DNA of 64,000 nucleotides from Bacilli bacterium (GCA_017411405.1 JAFQQE010000010.1:29615-93614); one strand, 5' to 3'; positions 10,261 to 54,182 are shown, counted from the stretch's first letter. Notes: generated by a model from the letters alone, not told the origin. Made by a program: numbers and translations.

Positions 10261-10785
10261 CTAATTTTTATTTAGTTTTACTACACTATTTATTTTTCCT
10301 ACTATAAATACTATGCTATCACACTTTTTTATTGCAACCTTTTTAAATATTGCTTTACCGCCAACTGTTAAAGATGATATTATACTTGATACTATTATTG
10401 ATGATAGAGTTATATTTCCTCCTAACAATTTAGAAAGACTTATTGCTACCATTGCTCCCATACTACCACTTAATATTCCGCATATATCTCCTATAACATC
10501 GTTACATATACTAGCTACTTTAACTGAGTTTTTTATAAGACTTAATGATTCTTTAGCACCTTTAATTTTTCTTGATGATTTTGCATGGAATGTTGCTTCA
10601 TTACTTGTTAGAGCAGCAGTTCCAATCATATCAAATATTATTCCGATAACAATAACTAATATTGTAATTACAATCATTACTATTAAATTAGCATTAGTTG
10701 TTATTGCGTTTGATATAAAACTAAATGCAAGTGATAGAAAAAAAGTCATTAAAAAAACTTTATATATCCAGTTATCCTTCTTCAT
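10261..10785 (-). CDS. Small integral membrane protein (about 4 TM helices, Gly/Ser-rich helices) downstream of a long structured leader.
   Basis: 174 aa. Contains ICNDVIGDICGILSGSMGAMVAISL. RBS AAGGGG lies 7 nt upstream of the ATG. Family not recognised. Confidence 0.5.
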   Translation of the reverse strand: MKKDNWIYKVFLMTFFLSLAFSFISNAITTNANLIVMIVITILVIVIGIIFDMIGTAALTSNEATFHAKSSRKIKGAKESLSLIKNSVKVASICNDVIGDICGILSGSMGAMVAISLSKLLGGNITLSSIIVSSIISSLTVGGKAIFKKVAIKKCDSIVFIVGKINSVVKLNKN

Positions 10786-11284
10786 TTACGACACCCCTTA
10801 TATAAAGTTGGAAAATATTGTATGGTATACTATAAATTAATTTTACGGCTTTGGTCGAGTTGAATTTCTCTATTTCCACACCTTCAGTTACCATCTGGCG
10901 ATTTCTCTTTATGGGAAATAACTAAAAGTCACCTATTTAATTACTCGATTACCACTTAGTCCGCACCTCAAACTTTATAGTTTAACACGCTAGAAGTTTT
11001 CCTTGACACAACTAACCTATCATTATTCGCTTTTGCAATTATATTTTCATATATATAAATTCGTATAATCCCATATAATCACTCACGACATGCACATTCT
11101 ATAAGACATTGACGCAATAAAAGGATTTAAATTGTATGCCATTACAACCGTCCTTGAATTTTAAATTATATATTCACCCCAACTTGGGCAGAAGAAGCAA
11201 ATATACAAAGTGTCATCTGTACAATTGGTGGATTTTTAGCCCCACCTTCAAATAGTGTTTATGACTAGCATAATGCACCACACG
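10786..11284 (-). ncRNA. Candidate large structured ncRNA or long 5' leader of about 500 nt. Family unassigned; an OLE-like RNA is a hypothesis.
   Basis: No ORF of 60 codons or more on either strand. GC content is clearly elevated relative to the flanks (e.g. ccacaccttcagttaccatctggcgatttctc). Several local hairpins are visible, including AAGGA-CGG-UUGUA-AUGGCA-UACAA-UUUAAA-UCCUU and GGUGGGGCUAAAAAUCCACC. It lies directly downstream of a perfect sigma-A promoter on the minus strand. Confidence 0.4.
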
Positions 11285-11325
11285 AATAACATTATAGCAA
11301 ATAATTTTGATTTTGTCAAAAATTT
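11285..11325 (-). promoter_or_regulatory. Strong sigma-A-type promoter (TTGACA-17-TATAAT) driving the ncRNA/leader and the membrane protein gene.
   Basis: Minus-strand sequence aaatttTTGACAaaatcaaaattatttgcTATAATgttattcG. The -35 is the reverse complement of 11314-11319 and the -10 is the reverse complement of 11291-11296. Confidence 0.55.
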
Positions 11326-16079: not shown

Positions 16080-16769
16080 TTAAACTTTCATAGTGTTTTT
16101 TAAACGTTTAATTACTTTCTTTTCTATTCTAGATATATATGATTGACTTATACCTAGCATATTAGCTACTTCTTTTTGTGTATATTCTTCTGTATTATTT
16201 AATCCATATCTTAATTTCATTATATGTTTTTCTCTATCATTTAAGGAATTTAATTCTCGTTCTAATAATACCTTATCTACTTTCGCTTCAAATTCTTTAT
16301 ATACTATATCTTCTTCAGTGCCTAGTATATCTTCCAAGTGTAATTCATTTCCTTCTGCATCATAGTTTAGTGCATCTTCAAAACTTATTTCTGTTTTTCT
16401 TCTTTTATTTTTTCTTAGAAACATGAGTATTTCATTTGCAATACATCTAGAACAATATGTTGCTAATTTTATATTTTTATCCATTTTGTAAGTATTTATA
16501 CCTTTTATTAGTCCAATTGATCCAATGCTTACTAAATCTTCTAAGTCATACCCTGTATTTTCATATTTTTTTGCAAGAAAAACTACTAATCTTATGTTAT
16601 GTTCTATTAGTTTATTTCTAGCTTCTTTATCCCCTTCTTTAGATAAAATTAAATATTTTGTCTCTTCTTCATTAGATAAAGGAGGAGGTAAAATATCTGT
16701 ACTACCTAGAAATAAACAAATATTTTCTTTTTTAAAAAACTTTAATATTAATTCTATAATTTTTTTCAT
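16080..16769 (-). CDS. sigE: Sporulation sigma factor E (pro-sigma-E).
   Basis: 229 aa. Pro-sequence with ILPPPLSNEEE, sigma-70 regions 2 and 4 (HNIRLVVFLAKKY, GISQSYISRIEKK). It immediately follows spoIIGA within the ftsA-ftsZ-spoIIGA-sigE cluster. Confidence 0.8.
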   Translation of the reverse strand: MKKIIELILKFFKKENICLFLGSTDILPPPLSNEEETKYLILSKEGDKEARNKLIEHNIRLVVFLAKKYENTGYDLEDLVSIGSIGLIKGINTYKMDKNIKLATYCSRCIANEILMFLRKNKRRKTEISFEDALNYDAEGNELHLEDILGTEEDIVYKEFEAKVDKVLLERELNSLNDREKHIMKLRYGLNNTEEYTQKEVANMLGISQSYISRIEKKVIKRLKNTMKV

Positions 16770-17572
16770 AAATCAAATATCCTTTCATTTAAAATACAAT
16801 CAGCTTTTAAATTTTCACATATTCCAATTAATACTTTTTCAATCTTTTTATCTTCTATTAAAATATATTCACAAGTTATACATTTTAGTAATCCACTATT
16901 ATTTAAAGAAGAAAATGGTACATATAATACTTTTTTATTTTTAATATTTATATATTTTTTATTAAGTAATATAATTGGTCTTTTTAAGTATGGATCAACT
17001 AATTTATTTCCTGTATCTAGAAATCCTTCTACATTAATTTCTTTATTTTTAAATTTTATTGTTACATAGTATTTTGTATTTATTCTTTTTTTATAATTTA
17101 AGTGTTCTTTAATATAAAATAAGATTATTATTGGACTTATTATTAAAAGTATAACTAAATTAATACTATATCCGTTATTTATGAATATAAAACTATTAAC
17201 TTTATATCCTAAAGAATCATTTATTAAATATAAACTTCCTCCTAATACTATACTTATTATGTATAAATAAAAAAGATTATTAAAAAATGATTTTTTACCA
17301 AAAGAAATTAATACCATAAATATACTAATTATTATTTTTACTAAATTTAAGATAATTGTTGACATTTTAAAGAATAAGAGAATTAAAGAAAGACTACCTA
17401 TAAGTGATCCTAGTAAAATTCTATATTTTTTTGTAGGAAGTTTATTTATAAATTTTACACCAGTCAATATATAGAAATCCATTATAAAGTTTATAAAAAA
17501 AACTAGGTCTATATATACTGTCATAGTATCACCTAGTTTATTATATTTTATATTTTTTAAAAAAATTGTCAA
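16766..17572 (-). CDS. spoIIGA: Sporulation sigma-E-processing aspartic protease SpoIIGA.
   Basis: Membrane N-domain and a C-terminal GFLDTGNKLVDP catalytic motif. The true start is probably the internal Met (MTVYIDL, about 17524), by comparison with the B. subtilis N-terminus MKIYLDV. Confidence 0.8.
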   Translation of the reverse strand: MTIFLKNIKYNKLGDTMTVYIDLVFFINFIMDFYILTGVKFINKLPTKKYRILLGSLIGSLSLILLFFKMSTIILNLVKIIISIFMVLISFGKKSFFNNLFYLYIISIVLGGSLYLINDSLGYKVNSFIFINNGYSINLVILLIISPIIILFYIKEHLNYKKRINTKYYVTIKFKNKEINVEGFLDTGNKLVDPYLKRPIILLNKKYINIKNKKVLYVPFSSLNNSGLLKCITCEYILIEDKKIEKVLIGICENLKADCILNERIFDL

Positions 17573-23297: not shown

Positions 23298-24170
23298 TTA
23301 TTTTACTAATTTCATTACATTATTATTTAAATAATATAGTTGTTCATCTAACATATTTAAGTTATATTGAATCCATCTATTCCATGCTTCATTTGTTTCT
23401 TCTTTTGCTAAAAAAGCAATACGTCCTCTATAATCTCCTCTAGTTAATAAATAATTTTTAGATAAGTATAATAAAGGTTTAGTAAAACTTTTGGAATATA
23501 ATTCATTAGTATTTTTCCAAAATTCGGCATGTTGAACTAACCTTGATAATCTTGTATTTCCATCATCAAATGGTTGCATTACAGATATTAATGCATGAAA
23601 GATTATCGGTGTCATAAAAGGTTCTGACATTTTGTTATTATTTAAAAAATACATTGCTTTATCTACAGTTTCATTAATTTCATTACTAGGGATTGGGATA
23701 TAATCTATATTTTTAGTACCATCAGCATTAAAAGTTCCTACAAATTTAGTATCTGTACTTCTAAATTTTTCTGCTCCTATTTCACTTTTTGTTCCCCTCA
23801 TTAAAATTTTATGAAGACTTTTTAAATCTTCTTTTGTTAAATCTCTTTTTTCATTTGTTATTTTTATAATTGTATCTAATGAATTTTGTCTATACATATT
23901 ATTATATAAACTAATTAAAAACGAATCTTCTTTTTCAACATGTTGATTATTTAAAATTTCATGATACTTAATAGTTTCTAAATAGTGTTTTAATAATTTC
24001 TCATCAAAGTTTTCTATTAATTTTATATAATTTATATAATTATTAACTGTATCTTCTAAATGATATTTATTATTATCATTAATATTAATTTTATCTACAT
24101 TATCGACTAATTTCATATCATTTCCCCCTTTATTGCCGTATATGATATCAAAAAAACGAACATTTGTCAA
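23298..24170 (-). CDS. Fic/DOC-family protein (AMPylation / cell filamentation family).
   Basis: Fic motif HxFx(D/E)GNxR present as MQPFDDGNTRLSRLV. Confidence 0.8.
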   Translation of the reverse strand: MTNVRFFDIIYGNKGGNDMKLVDNVDKININDNNKYHLEDTVNNYINYIKLIENFDEKLLKHYLETIKYHEILNNQHVEKEDSFLISLYNNMYRQNSLDTIIKITNEKRDLTKEDLKSLHKILMRGTKSEIGAEKFRSTDTKFVGTFNADGTKNIDYIPIPSNEINETVDKAMYFLNNNKMSEPFMTPIIFHALISVMQPFDDGNTRLSRLVQHAEFWKNTNELYSKSFTKPLLYLSKNYLLTRGDYRGRIAFLAKEETNEAWNRWIQYNLNMLDEQLYYLNNNVMKLVK

Positions 24171-42816: not shown

Positions 42817-43809
42817 ATGATTATAAATAAAATAATTGAGTTAGCGAAAAAAGATAAAAAAAATATTGTATTAGTAGAAACAAATGATATTAGAACTTTA
42901 AAAGCTGCAAGCGAAGTAAAAAGTATGAACTTCGCTGATATAACTTTAATTGGAAATGAAGAAAATATTATGACTTTGGCTAAAGATAATAATATAATGC
43001 TTGATGACATTAAAATAATAGATCCTAAAACTTCTTTATTAACTAAAGAATTAATAGAAGAATTTTTTAATTTAAGAAAAAGTAAAGGAATGAGTTATGA
43101 AGAAGCAAGTGATATTATTTCAAATGATTATTTATATTTTGGAGATATGTTAGTTTATATGGATTATGCTGATGGATTGGTTGCTGGAGCAACACATTCA
43201 TCTAGTGATGTTTTAAGAGCTGCTTTGAAAACTGTTAAAACTGCACCTGATTCAAAAATAGTTTCTTCTTTCTTTTTAATGGAAACAGAAAATAAAAATA
43301 TAGGTCAAGATGGCATATTTATCTTTTCGGATTGTGGTATGATACAAAATCCTACTAGTGAAGAATTAGTGAATATTGCTTATTCTTCTCAGGAATCATT
43401 TAAGAAGTTAGTTGGAGAAATACCTAAAATTGCATTTTTATCCCATTCAACAAATGGTTCTAGTAAGTGTGAAGATGTAGATAAAGTAAAAAATGCAGTT
43501 AATATGTTTAAAGAAAAATATCCAAATATATTAGCTGATGGAGAATTACAATTGGATGCAGCAATAGTAAAAGAAATATCAGAAAAAAAATATCCTGATT
43601 CTAAAATAAAAGGAGATGCTAATATTTTGATTTTTCCTGATTTAGATGCTGGTAACATTGCATACAAGACTGCTGAAAGAATTGGAAATGCCAAAGCTTA
43701 TGGACCTATTACACAAGGTATAAGAAAGCCTATAAATGATTTATCAAGAGGTTGTAATTATAAAGATATAGTTGGTGCTATTGCAATAACTTGTGTACAA
43801 GCAAAATAA
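42817..43809 (+). CDS. pta: Phosphate acetyltransferase (phosphotransacetylase; PTA/PTB family).
   Basis: 330-aa PTA_PTB-fold protein with a C-terminus typical of Firmicute Pta. Assigned as pta rather than ptb by length. Confidence 0.65.
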   Translation: MIINKIIELAKKDKKNIVLVETNDIRTLKAASEVKSMNFADITLIGNEENIMTLAKDNNIMLDDIKIIDPKTSLLTKELIEEFFNLRKSKGMSYEEASDIISNDYLYFGDMLVYMDYADGLVAGATHSSSDVLRAALKTVKTAPDSKIVSSFFLMETENKNIGQDGIFIFSDCGMIQNPTSEELVNIAYSSQESFKKLVGEIPKIAFLSHSTNGSSKCEDVDKVKNAVNMFKEKYPNILADGELQLDAAIVKEISEKKYPDSKIKGDANILIFPDLDAGNIAYKTAERIGNAKAYGPITQGIRKPINDLSRGCNYKDIVGAIAITCVQAK

Positions 43810-43838
43810 AGAACTCAAACGAGTTCTTTTAATCTTTA
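43808..43838. terminator. Bidirectional intrinsic terminator between pta and spoVAE.
   Basis: Hairpin AAGAACTCaaacGAGTTCTT flanked by T-runs on both strands. Confidence 0.55.
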
Positions 43839-44179
43839 ACTTTAGTTAATAAAGTAAATATAAACGAGAATATAATAGCACTACATATTCCTAAACTAAC
43901 GTTACATAATAATTCATTAAATATTCCAATAAATCCTCCACTCAGATATCCTGAATATGCACTATTAAATAATGTATTTCCGAAAGATGTAATAGGTATA
44001 CTGGCACCTACTCCAACAAAATTAATTATTTTATCATAACAACCTAACATACCTAAAAATGCTCCTAATACTACTAAACTACTTGTTACATGTCCTGGTG
44101 TAAATTTTGTATTATCTAATATAATTTGTCCTATAAGACAAATAAAACCGCAAAATAGAAAACTATATATTATTGTCAT
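43829..44179 (-). CDS. spoVAE: Stage V sporulation protein AE.
   Basis: 116-aa membrane protein downstream of spoVAD and spoVAC, in the Clostridial spoVAC-AD-AE arrangement. Confidence 0.7.
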   Translation of the reverse strand: MTIIYSFLFCGFICLIGQIILDNTKFTPGHVTSSLVVLGAFLGMLGCYDKIINFVGVGASIPITSFGNTLFNSAYSGYLSGGFIGIFNELLCNVSLGICSAIIFSFIFTLLTKVKD

Positions 44180-45134
44180 TAGTAACCTCCAAACTAATTA
44201 AATGTGCAATTGATGGTATTGAATGTTTTTGATTTACTAACATAGGACTATGAAGTGAACCTGTTGCTATAGCTAATATTTTTTTATATTTTTTATTTTG
44301 TAATATATTATTGAAAAGAATTAGTGGTAAACATACAGGTCCGCTTCCACCACTATATTTTTCTTGTTCTTTTTTGTATATTATACTTCCTGCATCGATA
44401 TGATTTTTTATGTTAATATTATAATCTTCCTTTAATAGAATTTTAAATAGTTTTGTTCCGTAACTACCTAAGTCTCCCGTTAGAATTATATCGTAATCAT
44501 TTACACTGGTTTTTGTATAATCTAAGTGTTCTTTTAAAGTTTTTACAGCCGCCGGCGCCATTACAGCTCCCATATTATTTGCATCTTTTATTCCCATATC
44601 AACAATGCTTCCGATAGTGGAGCCTTTTATCTTTATATTGGACTTATTTTTTGATAAGACACAACCTACACTCCCTGTAGTAGTAAATGTTGTATAAGAA
44701 GGTTTTTGAGCACCATATTCAATTGGAAATCTAAATTGTTTTTCACTTGCTAAATTATGAGAACTTGTTATAGATATTCCTTCTTTTATACTTTTTCCAT
44801 TTATAAAATTAGATATTATTATCATTGATTCAACAAATGTAGCACAGGCATTATATACTCCTAAAAATGATATATTATTATTAACATTACTTGAACTAGT
44901 AGCAGTTATTTGATTCATTAAATCTCCGCCTACTATTAAATCAGTTTTAGTATTTATTAGATTATTTAAAACTTCTTTTTGCATTTTTATTTCAGAATCT
45001 TCTATAGTTTTTTCGCCGTAATAAAAATCATTTATGTATTTATTTACATTTTTTAAAATACCGTTATTTTCATTTTTACCAGCAATACTATAAAAATTAT
45101 TTATATATAGATCTTTATAGATAAAACTAGCCAT
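44163..45134 (-). CDS. spoVAD: Stage V sporulation protein AD (thiolase-like fold).
   Basis: 323 aa between spoVAC and spoVAE, with an overlapping start/stop at each junction. Confidence 0.7.
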   Translation of the reverse strand: MASFIYKDLYINNFYSIAGKNENNGILKNVNKYINDFYYGEKTIEDSEIKMQKEVLNNLINTKTDLIVGGDLMNQITATSSSNVNNNISFLGVYNACATFVESMIIISNFINGKSIKEGISITSSHNLASEKQFRFPIEYGAQKPSYTTFTTTGSVGCVLSKNKSNIKIKGSTIGSIVDMGIKDANNMGAVMAPAAVKTLKEHLDYTKTSVNDYDIILTGDLGSYGTKLFKILLKEDYNINIKNHIDAGSIIYKKEQEKYSGGSGPVCLPLILFNNILQNKKYKKILAIATGSLHSPMLVNQKHSIPSIAHLISLEVTNDNNI

Positions 45135-45564
45135 AAAACACCACCTTAATTAAACAAAATATAAATGCACTTACTATTCCATACAATATAACAGATCCGG
45201 CTAATTTAAAAAAGTTAGCACCTAGTCCTGTAATTAAACCATCTTTTTTATAATCTAATGCACTACTTTGAATAGAATGTGCAAATCCTGTTATCGGAAC
45301 AATTAATCCTGCTTTAAATTTTATAACCCATTTATCAAAATCAAAAAATGCTGTCATAAAACAAGCTACTATTACTAATATGAAAATTATTATGCTTGAT
45401 GCATCTGTAATTTTCATATCATATACATTTACTAAAATTAATTTTAATATTTCACATATAGCTCCAAGTAATCCTCCACTAATAAAAGCAATTAGTGAAT
45501 GTTTCATTTTTTTTGGTTTAGGTGTGGTATCATTAACTAGTTTTTGATATTTTAATTTTTCCAT
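45127..45564 (-). CDS. spoVAC: Stage V sporulation protein AC.
   Basis: 145-aa membrane protein immediately downstream of sigF. Confidence 0.7.
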   Translation of the reverse strand: MEKLKYQKLVNDTTPKPKKMKHSLIAFISGGLLGAICEILKLILVNVYDMKITDASSIIIFILVIVACFMTAFFDFDKWVIKFKAGLIVPITGFAHSIQSSALDYKKDGLITGLGANFFKLAGSVILYGIVSAFIFCLIKVVFYG

Positions 45565-45604
45565 TTAAAAACCTCCATTTTTATTATGAAGGTTTTCATT
45601 TTTT

Positions 45605-46264
45605 TTATGCACAAATATATTCTTTTATCTTTTTTTTGGACTTTGTTTCTAATCTAGATACTTTAACTTGATTAATTCCTAAAATACGTGCTACTTCTTC
45701 TTGTGTATAATCTTTAAAATATCTATAATCTATTACTTTTCTTTCTTCTTCAGATAATTTTTCAAGAGAATCCTTAATCAAAATCTTTGTATCATAATCT
45801 TCTTTATGGCCAATAAAATTATAAAGATTAGTTTCACTATTTAATTCAATATTATCATCTAAAGAAATAATATTACTACAAGTAATTACTACATCATTCA
45901 CTAAACTTATGTCTAATTCTAAAAATCTACTTATTTCATCTAATGATGGAGTTTTGTTAAATTTTTGAGTTAGTAATACTTTAGCATTTTCTATTCTTTT
46001 GTAGATTTTTAAGTAATTTTTATTAAGTTTAATATTTCTATTATTCTTAGCTAAATCATACATTTCTCCAAAAATATATTTATATGCAAATGTGTTAAAT
46101 TCTACACCAGAATTAATATTATAATTTTTTAATGCTTTTATAGCCCCAATATAGCCAGCCTGGTATAAATCAATATTTTCTACATTGTAAAACTTTTTAG
46201 CAATAAAATATATTATTTTTTTTAAACCTGGATCATTTATTACTTCATCTAAATTTGTATTCAT
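45605..46264 (-). CDS. sigF: Sporulation sigma factor F-like (sigma-70 family, regions 2-4).
   Basis: 219 aa. Region 2 (YQAGYIGAIKAL, FNTFAYKYIFGEM) and region 4 HTH (EVARILGINQVKVSRLE). Position directly downstream of the STAS protein and upstream of spoVA genes is as in spoIIA operons. Confidence 0.7.
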   Translation of the reverse strand: MNTNLDEVINDPGLKKIIYFIAKKFYNVENIDLYQAGYIGAIKALKNYNINSGVEFNTFAYKYIFGEMYDLAKNNRNIKLNKNYLKIYKRIENAKVLLTQKFNKTPSLDEISRFLELDISLVNDVVITCSNIISLDDNIELNSETNLYNFIGHKEDYDTKILIKDSLEKLSEEERKVIDYRYFKDYTQEEVARILGINQVKVSRLETKSKKKIKEYICA

Positions 46265-46272
46265 TTTTTCAC

Positions 46273-46596
46273 CTAAATTTGTAATATTTTAAGTGCACTT
46301 AATTCATTATTTGTTTCTTTATAAAATTCTAAATTAAATTTATTATTTACTACTAAAACTCTTCCATTATTATTTAATATAGCATTATATCCTAACAATA
46401 ATGATTTACTACCAACTTCATCAATACTAACTAATTCGTCAAAGTTATATACTAAATTTTTTATACCTTGACTTATAATAATAGGAATTAAAGTATCAAC
46501 TAACTTATTTGCCGTTAATTTATTTAAGGATCCTATTAACCTTACAAATAATATACCACTCTTATACTCCATATTTATATTTAACATAATCACCAT
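46273..46596 (-). CDS. spoIIAA: Anti-sigma-factor antagonist (STAS domain, SpoIIAA-like).
   Basis: 107-aa STAS fold. The region NFDELVSIDEVGSKSLLLGYN aligns to the SpoIIAA DLSGVSFMDSSGLGVIL block. The phospho-Ser position may be substituted. Confidence 0.65.
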   Translation of the reverse strand: MVIMLNINMEYKSGILFVRLIGSLNKLTANKLVDTLIPIIISQGIKNLVYNFDELVSIDEVGSKSLLLGYNAILNNNGRVLVVNNKFNLEFYKETNNELSALKILQI

Positions 46597-46633
46597 CTCC
46601 TATAATATAAATTATTTTTTATAAATTTTAAAC

Positions 46634-48211
46634 TTATTCGACATTATTTCTATTTCTTTTTTTCTTAATAAATAATATTATTTCTAATGCAATAAAATTT
46701 ATGATTATAATATATTTAATAAAACTCATTTTATTAATTTTTATTTTATCTGTTTTAACTTTTTCTTTATATTCTTCTAATAATTCAGTTTTATTACTTA
46801 CCTCTTCAGTATTAGAAAAATAATTTTCTTTATTTATTTCAGAACTTTTGCTTTGTTTAACTATTTTTAAATATTCTATATCATCTAATACTTCATATTT
46901 ATTATTTTCTACATAAGTTTCATTTTCTAATTCATTATTTATTTCTATATTATCTTTTTCTACATTTACTAATTCCTTATTTATTTCTATATTATCTTGT
47001 TCTATATTTTCTAATTCATTATTTATTTCTATATTATCTTGTTCTATATTTTCTAATTCATTATTTATTTCTATATTATCTTGTTCTACATTTTCTAATT
47101 CATTATTTATTTCTATATTATCTTGTTCTACATTCTTTATATCGTCTTTTTTATTTTCTATATTTTCATTATTTAAATCTAATATTTCCTCTTTAATCTC
47201 AGTTTGAGGTATATTCACAATTACTTCTTTTTTTACATTAATATCATTTAATTTAAAGTTACATTCATATACACCATTAACATTATAGTCAATATTACAA
47301 TCTATATTCGTTTTTCCACTACTATATTTTATATATTCTTCTATACTTTTAGTATTATTATTTATTTCAATAATATCCTCTATTTCTAATTTATCTCTTA
47401 AGTAATATTCTTCTATTTCTTTATAATCATCTAATATTATATTTTTTCCTTCTTTTTGATAATTATCTGTTTTTGTTATATTTTCTTTATAATGTTTATA
47501 TAATTTGATTTTATCTATATATTTATATTCAGCTTCATAGCTTTCTTCTTTATCATAGTCTTCGATATAATCAAAAGTAAATATATGTTTTCTTTTGATA
47601 GAGTTATTTAATAATATAGGTATAGCATTACCACATATATTAAATTTAATTTGATAATTTTTATCTATATCTGTGTATAAAATAATTTTTAATGATTCTA
47701 CATAATAAGGTTGTTTTAATAATGGTGAAATATAGTTAAATGCTTGATAGTAAAAATACGTATCATAGTCTTTATCATATAAATATTTTAATGTAGTACC
47801 AAATATACTGCTACTATATATATCATAAGTTAATAATTCTTCATTATTATAAATTTCTAATTCATAAAATTTAGTATTAAATGGTATTTCATCAAATATA
47901 AAATCAAAATCTTTTTCTTTGCTAACTTTTATATTTATATATTCATCATTTTCAGTATAATAATCAACTAATCTTTCTTCTATAATATAATCTTCGTAAT
48001 CTACAATATATTCTTCGTTTTCTTCCATATATCCAATATCTATATACTCTTTATCATAAGTATTATAAATTTTATATTTTTCTATCTTTATTAAATCTTC
48101 ATGTATATCATTAAGGCTTTCTACCTTTCTATATTCTCCATAATATACTTCTGCTATTACGTTATTTTGTAATGCAAAAAAACAAATAATAATAAATAAA
48201 TATTTTTTCAT
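46634..48211 (-). CDS. Secreted, C-terminally membrane-anchored acidic repeat protein.
   Basis: Signal peptide MKKYLFIIICFFALQNNVIA. Tandem 15-aa repeats (NNELENIEQDNIEIN). C-terminal TM plus KKKRNRNN. Confidence 0.6.
   Translation of the reverse strand: MKKYLFIIICFFALQNNVIAEVYYGEYRKVESLNDIHEDLIKIEKYKIYNTYDKEYIDIGYMEENEEYIVDYEDYIIEERLVDYYTENDEYINIKVSKEKDFDFIFDEIPFNTKFYELEIYNNEELLTYDIYSSSIFGTTLKYLYDKDYDTYFYYQAFNYISPLLKQPYYVESLKIILYTDIDKNYQIKFNICGNAIPILLNNSIKRKHIFTFDYIEDYDKEESYEAEYKYIDKIKLYKHYKENITKTDNYQKEGKNIILDDYKEIEEYYLRDKLEIEDIIEINNNTKSIEEYIKYSSGKTNIDCNIDYNVNGVYECNFKLNDINVKKEVIVNIPQTEIKEEILDLNNENIENKKDDIKNVEQDNIEINNELENVEQDNIEINNELENIEQDNIEINNELENIEQDNIEINKELVNVEKDNIEINNELENETYVENNKYEVLDDIEYLKIVKQSKSSEINKENYFSNTEEVSNKTELLEEYKEKVKTDKIKINKMSFIKYIIIINFIALEIILFIKKKRNRNNVE
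46921..47140. repeat. Tandem 45-nt coding repeats (about 5 copies) within the surface protein gene.
   Basis: Repeating unit attatttatttctatattatcttgttctatattttctaattc, with minor variants. Confidence 0.8.
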
Positions 48212-52132: not shown

Positions 52133-52183
52133 ATAATCACCAACATAATTATAATAATTAACTATGTCGAATTATAAGAGTTT

Positions 52184-53071
52184 TTATTCAAATTTTAAAT
52201 CTATAAAACTATTACATATACTTGCAATTAATATAGCACCCAAACTAGATAAAGCGGGTTGAACTAAATATAATAAAAATGTAAGTAATCCAACTATAAT
52301 ACCATAAATAACTATACCTTTTTTAGTATAACTACTACTAACACTATCAGTTGCAATAAATACAAAAGAAAATAATATTCCATTAGTAAATAACATATTC
52401 ATAATATTACTAATATCATTCATTATTAAACAATATATTATAGTTAATATAGAAAAAGTAATAGTTGCAAAAATGGGTATATTTCTTTTGTATATTTTAA
52501 AATTATATAATACTATAAAACTTATAATTAATAGCAATACGTTAGTAGTAAAAATTCCACCACTACCCTTACCAAGTAAATAATCTAGTGCATTCATATT
52601 AAAATTATTGCTTGCTTCGTAATTATTTAAAAAACTAAATTCATTAAATAAATTCATTATAAAAAATATTATTAAACTAGTTAGAGCTATATAATTTATT
52701 TTATTTATTTTAATAAACTTAGATACTAATAATACTATAAAAGTAACTGTACTAAATAGTATTATATTAGTATTTATACTTATTATACACGCAACTAATA
52801 CTCCATATAAAGAATGAAAACTACTAAATATAATATCAACTAATTTAGCTTTTTTCTTTTTTATTAATACTTCATATATATAATTAACTAAACTACCTAT
52901 TATGAATCCAATTATTATAAATAATAAAGGTTTAATAGCACCATATAAAGAAACATAATCCTTTAAATATAAACTTATACCATTTTTATATATACCAAAT
53001 AATATTAATGGAAATAAACTTAAAAAATATATAAAATAACATTTCTTAATACTATTACTACTTTGTATCAT
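52184..53071 (-). CDS. RnfD/NqrB-like integral membrane protein (diverged).
   Basis: 295 aa. GKGSGGIFTTNVLLLIISFIVLYNFKIYKRNIPI parallels the RnfD block GxxGGxLGETSxLxxLxGGxxLxxxxxIxWxIP. Overlaps the RnfC-like gene by 14 nt. Confidence 0.45.
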   Translation of the reverse strand: MIQSSNSIKKCYFIYFLSLFPLILFGIYKNGISLYLKDYVSLYGAIKPLLFIIIGFIIGSLVNYIYEVLIKKKKAKLVDIIFSSFHSLYGVLVACIISINTNIILFSTVTFIVLLVSKFIKINKINYIALTSLIIFFIMNLFNEFSFLNNYEASNNFNMNALDYLLGKGSGGIFTTNVLLLIISFIVLYNFKIYKRNIPIFATITFSILTIIYCLIMNDISNIMNMLFTNGILFSFVFIATDSVSSSYTKKGIVIYGIIVGLLTFLLYLVQPALSSLGAILIASICNSFIDLKFE

Positions 53072-54182
53072 TATTACACCCCTTATTTAATTTAATATGA
53101 CTAGGACAATAATAAGAACATAAACCACAATTAACACATCTTTTTTTATAGTCTAATGCTTTATTATCTTTATTAAAATACATATATTTAGGATTTATAT
53201 TAACAGGACAATTATTAACACATAATCCACAATTAATACATTCATTTTCTTTAATTTCTTCATTACTATTTATAAAAATACTTCGAATGTTATTATCTAT
53301 TATAAAATTAGTATTATTCAATTTTTTACCATTTAACAAACCATTAATAATTATATCTTTATTATTAATTTTATAGTAATCTACGATATCACTTAAACTA
53401 GTTCCAATTTTAACACGTAATACTTTACTATAATCTATTAAATTTCCTGTTAAAGTTATATAAGTATAACTATTCTTTCTTCCTTTTTTTAATACATTAT
53501 ATATATTTAATATATCCTTAATATTTAAATATAATACTGGATACTTTTTATTTTTATAACTAGTTAATTTATTAATTAAGATATTTTTATTTCCAATAGT
53601 TAAACTATTACTAAATAATTTCAAATCTATTTTAGGATATGTACCTATATTATTAAGTAATATATCAACAACATTTATATCATTATTACTAACTGCTAAA
53701 AAACACTTTTTTATATTCATTATATCTATTAAAGCATCAATACAATCTAATATTTGAATAGTATATTCTTTTAATAGTACATTATAATTCAATTCTTCTA
53801 TATATTCATCTATACCATTTACTATTAATACTTTACTATTTGAATTAAAATTGTCTATTAAATTAAATTTATCAACCAATTCTATAAATTCTTCTTTACT
53901 ATATTTATTAATATATTTTTTAGTACCAAATCTAGTTTTTAATTTATCTTTATAATCGTTATCAATAACAATATATTTTTTATTATTTATAGTTGTTGAA
54001 CCTAATACTTTACCAGATACACTACTATAAACTTTATTTTCATTATTTTCTAATAAAACTTCATTTTTATATATATAATCCCCTTCTTTATAATAGATTT
54101 GACTATTATTTAATATTGGTAAATATATATAATCACAATTTAAAAAATTTTCTATATTACTAACTTCTTTCATATCTTGCAC
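53058..54182 (-). CDS. RnfC-like protein with two C-terminal 4Fe-4S ferredoxin motifs (diverged; no obvious NAD/FMN glycine-rich motif).
   Basis: 374 aa. CINCGLCVNNCP and CVNCGLCSYYCP at the C-terminus. N-terminal barrel-like region. Confidence 0.45.
   Translation of the reverse strand: MQDMKEVSNIENFLNCDYIYLPILNNSQIYYKEGDYIYKNEVLLENNENKVYSSVSGKVLGSTTINNKKYIVIDNDYKDKLKTRFGTKKYINKYSKEEFIELVDKFNLIDNFNSNSKVLIVNGIDEYIEELNYNVLLKEYTIQILDCIDALIDIMNIKKCFLAVSNNDINVVDILLNNIGTYPKIDLKLFSNSLTIGNKNILINKLTSYKNKKYPVLYLNIKDILNIYNVLKKGRKNSYTYITLTGNLIDYSKVLRVKIGTSLSDIVDYYKINNKDIIINGLLNGKKLNNTNFIIDNNIRSIFINSNEEIKENECINCGLCVNNCPVNINPKYMYFNKDNKALDYKKRCVNCGLCSYYCPSHIKLNKGCNNDTK

Follow-up and report, generated by a model that had tools for sequence, protein, structure and literature searches.

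How is sigma-F kept in check where the operon that encodes it has no gene for the anti-sigma factor? The partner switch of SpoIIAA, SpoIIAB and SpoIIE is the textbook mechanism by which sigma-F activity is restricted to the forespore. The window analysed here, a stretch of 64,000 nt from an uncultured gut bacterium with very AT-rich DNA (23% G+C), had been read from its sequence alone as containing a spoIIA-type operon without spoIIAB, in which the STAS protein might no longer be phosphorylatable. The gene order on the minus strand is a 525-aa ORF, the STAS gene, an 8-nt gap, the sigma factor gene, spoVAC, spoVAD, spoVAE and a terminator-like hairpin, and the features of the locus are as follows.

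46634-48211, minus strand: 525-aa ORF without known domain, upstream of the STAS gene
46637-46643, minus strand: Spo0A box, exact TGTCGAA, overlapping the last codons (V-E) of the 525-aa ORF
46604-46632, minus strand: putative promoter, TTTAAA (-35-like), 17 nt, TATATT (-10-like), from a consensus scan; begins 4 nt downstream of the box
46273-46587 (ORF readable from 46596), minus strand: SpoIIAA-like STAS protein, 104 aa (Pfam, NCBIfam, HMMER alignment)
46269-46274, minus strand: AGGTGA ribosome-binding site for the sigma factor gene, overlapping the STAS stop codon TAG
46265-46272, minus strand: intergenic gap between STAS and sigma factor genes, 8 nt, gtgaaaaa
45605-46264, minus strand: sigma-F-like sporulation sigma factor, 219 aa (Pfam, NCBIfam)
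45582-45610, minus strand: forespore-type promoter-like motif, GCATA, 17 nt, CATAATA, upstream of spoVAC; GCATA overlaps the sigma factor stop codon
45566-45598, minus strand: hairpin with a 13-bp stem and a U-run after it; the spoVAC ribosome-binding site (GGAGG) lies in the 3' arm
45127-45564, minus strand: spoVAC, SpoVA protein recognised by Pfam/NCBIfam
44163-45134, minus strand: spoVAD, SpoVA protein recognised by Pfam/NCBIfam
43829-44179, minus strand: spoVAE, SpoVA protein recognised by Pfam/NCBIfam
43808-43829, no strand assigned: bidirectional terminator-like hairpin 3' of spoVAE

The two ORFs that the sequence-only reading had placed on the minus strand at 46273-46596 and 45605-46264 are present at those positions, the 8-nt junction carries the AGGTGA ribosome-binding site that it described, and Pfam and NCBIfam confirm its assignment of the three genes 3' of the sigma factor gene to spoVAC, spoVAD and spoVAE. 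The fourth codon of the STAS ORF, the ATG at 46587, is the likely true start and yields a 104-aa protein, which is entered at NCBI as 'STAS domain-containing protein [Bacilli bacterium]'. According to the ORF map and NCBIfam, STAS is the first gene and the sigF-like gene the end gene of the operon, an arrangement that recurs in related loci. The STAS protein matches Pfam PF01740 with 28.9 bits, and its best NCBIfam model is SpoIIAA (TIGR02886) with 36.4 bits, below the equivalog cutoff of 114.75. An AlphaFold2 model of it, for which 53 homologues were used, reaches a pLDDT of 95.5, and the top four Foldseek matches of this model are SpoIIAA chains with TM 0.84-0.86, the best being 1THN_B; structures of RsbV and RsbW and the UsfX-RsfB complex (8IH8, TM 0.80) are also among the matches. 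Helix alpha-3 of SpoIIAA is deleted in the window protein, which has a loop in its place, and the corresponding segment is still present in more basal members of the STAS family. The sigma factor has regions 2, 3 and 4 (Pfam); its best equivalog is SigF (TIGR02885) with 123.3 bits, compared with 95 for SigG and 82 for SigB and below the cutoff of 321.45, and its best match in the PDB is sigma-F of G. stearothermophilus (1L0O_C, 85 bits; the second best has 60).

With a STAS fold nearest SpoIIAA, a sigma factor nearest sigma-F, spoVA genes downstream and a Spo0A box upstream, the locus is indeed the spoIIA-type operon for which it had been taken. With the canonical spoIIAA-spoIIAB-sigF operon of Bacillus and Clostridia it shares the SpoIIAA-type fold (TM 0.86), the affinity of its sigma factor to sigma-F, the Spo0A box on the 5' side, spoVA directly on the 3' side, tight gene junctions and, in one relative, a dacF-like gene on the 5' side. 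It differs from the canonical operon in having no SpoIIAB gene, in a phospho-serine that is not conserved in the lineage, in the deletion of alpha-3 in the window's sub-clade, in a sigma factor that lacks about 35 residues (most of them at the N terminus) and scores far under the equivalog cutoff for SigF, and in promoter hexamers that look sigma-A-like rather than sigma-H-like. The RsbV-RsbW-sigma-B system has the same three-part partner-switch logic and is represented among the structure matches, but SigB scores below SigF (82 versus 123 bits), the synteny of the window is specific to sporulation (spoVA, Spo0A box) and no RsbW was found.

The 525-aa ORF has a signal peptide, a C-terminal membrane anchor, a conserved N-terminal V-Y-Y-G-E-Y motif and, at 46921-47134, five tandem repeats of 42 nt. 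Related loci have diverged homologues of it in the corresponding place 5' of STAS, as a fast-evolving syntenic family. In B. subtilis, dacF lies upstream of spoIIA, and in one of the more distant members of the STAS family (L057) a Peptidase_S11 (dacF-like) gene is found about 1.5 kb 5' of the STAS-sigma pair. A diverged DacF was considered for the 525-aa ORF and rejected: its size and its layout of signal peptide and anchor agree, but there is no Peptidase_S11 signal.

No second sigma factor of the SigF/G type is present in the window or in 50 related loci. The genes for SpoIIGA and pro-sigE lie directly 3' of ftsA-ftsZ in the window (16080-17572, minus strand), and the gene after them is that for acetate kinase (ackA), not sigG. 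There might be just one forespore sigma factor in the lineage, or sigG might be located elsewhere.

The candidate positions for a kinase gene are the junction of the STAS and sigma factor genes, the rest of the window, and the neighbourhood of the same operon in other genomes. A B. subtilis SpoIIAB query, checked against PDB 1TIL/1L0O (E = 2e-68), detected no SpoIIAB when run against the window with tblastn (best E 0.29), and an HMM for SpoIIAB/RsbW has no real match either there or in the related loci. The claim that no SpoIIAB ORF lies between the two genes thus holds for the 8-nt gap itself and, by tblastn and HMM, across the whole window. Pfam found no HATPase domain in the 28 window ORFs that were scanned, most of which are of uncertain identity, and no candidate for SpoIIE or another PP2C phosphatase was noted among the window ORFs, part of which were scanned with Pfam. 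In up to 10 kb to each side of the sigma factor gene (loci spanning about 20 kb at most), a SpoIIAB/RsbW-like ORF is missing from 50 of 50 species. Weak hits of the SpoIIAB HMM in loci L028-L035 proved to be antisense artefacts within a minus-strand gene, and a hit in L045 is an ordinary histidine kinase. When the B. subtilis SpoIIAB sequence was used for a database search, the best 120 of 8000 candidates were all from Bacillaceae. One match of that search, from outside the window, is a 207-aa Bacillus protein (P0109) that has both a STAS and a SpoIIAB domain, and it is either a SpoIIAA-SpoIIAB fusion or an artefact of annotation or frameshift.

The 50 related loci were obtained by scanning one genome per species, and all are from uncultured gut MAGs labelled Bacilli, Tenericutes or Mollicutes, with a G+C content of 22-34% and sigma factors 39-73% identical to that of the window. 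STAS lies directly upstream of the sigma factor gene in 44 of them, as an ORF of 101-125 aa that ends between -16 and +88 nt from the sigma start, mostly at -1, 0, 1 or 8 nt, and a spoVAC-sized ORF follows the sigma factor gene in most loci. An exhaustive profile search yielded 260 cluster representatives at E <= 1e-10. The contigs of five more distant family members were inspected, and in each the STAS gene is followed directly by the sigma factor gene, and then by spoVA where the contig extends that far, with no kinase gene; two of the five have an intact DSSG together with this adjacency. The synteny check in related genomes, which the sequence-only reading had called for, therefore extends the arrangement of STAS and sigma factor without SpoIIAB to 44 of 50 species and to further metagenome contigs, and its recurrence in so many independent species genomes is far beyond chance. 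The remaining six loci (L025, L036, L037, L042, L043 and L045) have no STAS gene, and the sigma factor tree groups five of the six in a single clade. The gene upstream of sigma in these loci is Ddl or TruB in three that were checked and has no Pfam match in two; spoVAC is downstream of sigma, except that L045 has no called ORF after it.

The STAS protein itself is maintained as a gene. Its ORF is intact in more than 150 diverged clusters, and because stop codons are frequent by composition in these genomes, ORFs that stay open indicate that the genes are maintained. Pairwise dN/dS is about 0.48 for STAS, 0.47 for the sigma factor and 0.35 for SpoVAC; as dS is saturated and AT-biased, these values are a rough guide and show only that STAS evolves like the neighbouring sigma factor. 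Divergence from the canonical families can be compared among the sporulation proteins of the window as the share of the curated NCBIfam cutoff that each attains, which is 32% for STAS, 38% for sigma-F, 57% for SpoIIGA, 72-82% for SpoVAC, SpoVAD and SpoVAE, and 88-95% for SigE. STAS and sigma-F thus stand furthest from their curated families among the sporulation proteins of the window, a pattern that would fit an altered constraint on proteins that once had SpoIIAB as a partner.

The sequence-only reading had noted that the phospho-serine block DSSG of SpoIIAA appears to be replaced by DEVG, with a glutamate that might mimic phosphoserine, which would fit loss of the kinase. Residues 5-82 of the STAS protein align without gaps to the SpoIIAA proteins of G. 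stearothermophilus and B. subtilis (HMMER), with 'sidevgsk' aligned on 'fmdssglg', so that the position of the phospho-serine is occupied by glutamate (codon GAA at 46417-46419, minus strand). This residue, Glu57, is the one at which helix alpha-2 begins in the AlphaFold2 model. The substitution is thus borne out by alignment to SpoIIAA proteins of solved structure, and the canonical phosphorylation site of the window protein is without serine, as a non-phosphorylatable STAS protein would have it. The residues found at this position in three sets of homologues are as follows.

107 close relatives: E 65, D 28, K 6, N 4, M 2, R 1, S 1
44 species loci: N 13, S 8, E 7, D 5, I 4, R 2 and five singletons
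149 family representatives: E 24, S 20, K 19, L 16, I 14, N 12, M 8, D 7, Q 6, Y 6, V 5 and others

The flanking Asp (D57) and Gly (G60) are 95-100% conserved in all three sets, and about 95% across the 149 representatives. The variability of the serine position beside a conserved Asp and Gly indicates that the site is unconstrained; as the residue is hydrophobic in 50 of the 149 representatives and no acidic residue is fixed, the idea of a phosphomimetic glutamate is not supported. A kinase substrate site would not tolerate such variation. Serine or the whole DSSG is retained in the sub-clade L027-L035 and in some representatives. The possibility that the position serves only as a helix N-cap agrees with the 44 species loci (mostly N, S, D or E) and was dropped on account of the hydrophobic residues in the wider family.

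The Spo0A box lies about 57 nt upstream of STAS, and a box is present in all 45 STAS-bearing sequences (the window and 44 loci), at a distance of 44-62 nt from the STAS start, and of 56-62 nt in 42 of the 45. The variant TGACGAA occurs in four loci and TGTCGAA in the others. All six STAS-less loci have the box 46-61 nt upstream of the sigma start, and at least five of them have a similar promoter after it, which indicates that the STAS gene was removed cleanly. Hexamers resembling -35 and -10 elements occur at matching positions 3' of the box in related loci; in all 51 sequences (the window and 50 loci) a conserved box, TGNCGAA, stands beside promoter hexamers at a near-fixed distance and is predicted to be a Spo0A site. 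The exact sequence TGTCGAA occurs only twice in the window when both strands are counted; the other occurrence is intergenic (52165-52171, plus strand), beside rnfC/rnfD-like genes (52184-54182), and may be a second Spo0A site. From these motifs we infer that STAS and sigF form a Spo0A-driven bicistron.

A different signal precedes spoVAC. The motif GCATA-17-CATAATA resembles the consensus of B. subtilis forespore promoters for sigma-F/G; the window has two matches to the forespore-type motif compared with 0.64 expected, and about 40 loci have G[ACT]ATA-N17/18-CATA[AC]TA in the same register (the first element is GTGTA in L039). The motif is embedded in the hairpin that precedes spoVAC, which has a predicted energy of -13.4 kcal/mol (z = -4.5) and shows compensatory changes in six of nine consensus pairs across 28 loci. 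Transcripts that read through from the sigma factor gene would fold the terminator-like hairpin and mask the spoVAC ribosome-binding site, while transcripts from the forespore promoter would begin without the 5' arm and be translatable. The hairpin would in this way insulate translation of spoVA from read-through of the Spo0A-driven transcript.

The gene content of the window can be compared with a published survey. According to the KOfam presence/absence calls of Field, Bowerman and Hugenholtz 2024 (PMC10868615), spoIIAB and spoIIE are reduced or absent and spoIIGA is present in order RF39, with at least five RF39 genomes among those listed, all of family UBA660. The window has the same gene set in that it lacks spoIIAB and has spoIIGA, and by this gene content (spoIIGA-sigE present, no spoIIAB) rather than by phylogeny it would belong with RF39. 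The bare absence of spoIIAB is thus already known from that survey; what is new is the anatomy of the locus, namely the retained degenerate STAS protein, the conserved bicistron with its Spo0A box and the STAS-less branch. That survey gives KO presence/absence only, without the retained STAS, the degenerate serine, the STAS-less sub-clade or the promoter with the Spo0A box.

With somewhat better than even confidence, we read the locus as the spoIIA operon of this lineage after the partner switch of SpoIIAA, SpoIIAB and SpoIIE was dismantled. In an ancestor of the large AT-rich clade of uncultured gut Bacilli, spoIIAB would have been cleanly excised from between spoIIAA and sigF, with loss of the phosphatase alongside that of the kinase (the phosphatase part on the strength of the literature). 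The STAS gene would have stayed translationally coupled to sigma-F under the promoter with the Spo0A box, and with no kinase to serve, the phospho-acceptor serine would have become a free position, filled by glutamate in the window genome. Deletion of helix alpha-3 would have come later, and in one sub-clade the STAS gene would have been lost altogether. Sigma-F would have been under Spo0A control throughout and made when Spo0A is active; it would not be held by an ATP-dependent anti-sigma factor encoded at the locus, and its activity would be set mainly by synthesis or by some other factor. The free serine position, the loss of STAS in six relatives and the published absence of spoIIAB and spoIIE from RF39 together favour rewiring or loss. 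Counting against the dismantled switch, Ser or DSSG is kept in L027-L035 and in some representatives, and purifying selection on STAS implies that it has a partner. Two further points against it are that the published absence depends on KOfam thresholds and that, to our knowledge, these organisms have never been seen to sporulate.

The main rival reading places the gene for a SpoIIAB, or for an anti-sigma-F that is non-orthologous or not a kinase, at another site in the genome, so that STAS is still the antagonist of this protein and is regulated without serine phosphorylation. In M. tuberculosis, RsfA and UsfX are precedents for non-phosphorylated antagonists of a non-kinase anti-sigma factor; the STAS antagonists RsfA and RsfB of that sigma-F system work without the canonical phospho-serine cycle, and the match of the window protein to 8IH8 is in keeping with such a likeness. 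The conservation of STAS and its tight coupling to sigma-F, and the invariance of the Asp and Gly that flank the lost serine, also speak for this reading. A diverged gene for it can escape KOfam-based calls; since STAS and the sigma factor are themselves far below curated cutoffs, an equally diverged SpoIIAB could be missed by KOfam thresholds. In M. tuberculosis, however, UsfX adjoins sigF, and at the window locus no anti-sigma gene was found, nor does one occur in the 64 kb of the window or within 10 kb in the 50 species; six species have dropped STAS yet keep the sigma factor and its promoter, and RF39 has been reported with spoIIAB and spoIIE reduced or absent. On balance, an anti-sigma factor encoded in trans, diverged or not a kinase, is unlikely, at a chance of perhaps one in five.

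The conservation of STAS under purifying selection implies a role independent of phosphorylation, and that role could be played on the sigma factor itself, STAS being a direct regulator of sigma-F (an inhibitor or chaperone) in a two-protein module. Stop/start junctions that overlap or are 1-8 nt apart suggest coupled and possibly equimolar synthesis of the two proteins, which have diverged together from their canonical families, and a sigma-F made from a Spo0A-type promoter needs some restraint. Against this, no STAS domain that binds a sigma factor directly is known to us, and the STAS-less sub-clade does without the protein; a branch that manages without a co-encoded partner argues against STAS as the sole restraint on sigma-F. 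Direct regulation by STAS is improbable, and hardly less so is the fuller proposal that a large clade of putative endospore formers turns on its first forespore sigma factor without SpoIIAB or SpoIIE by re-using a non-phosphorylatable SpoIIAA-like protein as a direct stoichiometric partner of sigma-F; if true, compartment-specific gene activation would there be achieved in a different way, by a minimal switch of two proteins. Less probable than any of these is that the locus has no current function and is left over from a sporulation pathway in decay, in a genome-reduced lineage that does not sporulate. These orders are documented to have reduced genomes and to have lost sporulation genes step by step, and STAS has been lost in some members, but the ORFs are intact at 23% G+C and across the more than 150 clusters, the Spo0A box is kept in 51 of 51 sequences, the forespore-type promoter and covarying hairpin are conserved before spoVAC, and the window has well-conserved SigE, SpoIIGA, SpoVS and SpoVA.

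If the partner switch has been dismantled, a broad and abundant gut lineage keeps a Spo0A-driven sigF, sigE with spoIIGA, and spoVA while the switch is missing, an absence that we infer to be genome-wide. Either cell-specific activation of sigma-F would be attainable in another way, or sporulation would proceed without cell-specific activation. The graded series of STAS with serine, STAS without serine and no STAS makes the question open to comparative genomics and heterologous expression.

Further features lie elsewhere in the window. A 290-aa protein with a Fic/DOC domain is encoded at 23298-24170 (minus strand), and a Fic gene is also found near the spoIIA-like locus of L057. OLE RNA (RF01071) has a full-length match at 10806-11297 (minus strand) that scores 228 bits, where the gathering score is 50, in only about 490 nt, and directly after it, at 10261-10785 (minus strand), lies an ORF for a 174-aa multi-pass membrane protein that has no match in Pfam or NCBIfam and is placed like the OLE-associated protein OapA; the RNA and the membrane ORF are a compact OLE locus in a gut MAG of 23% G+C.
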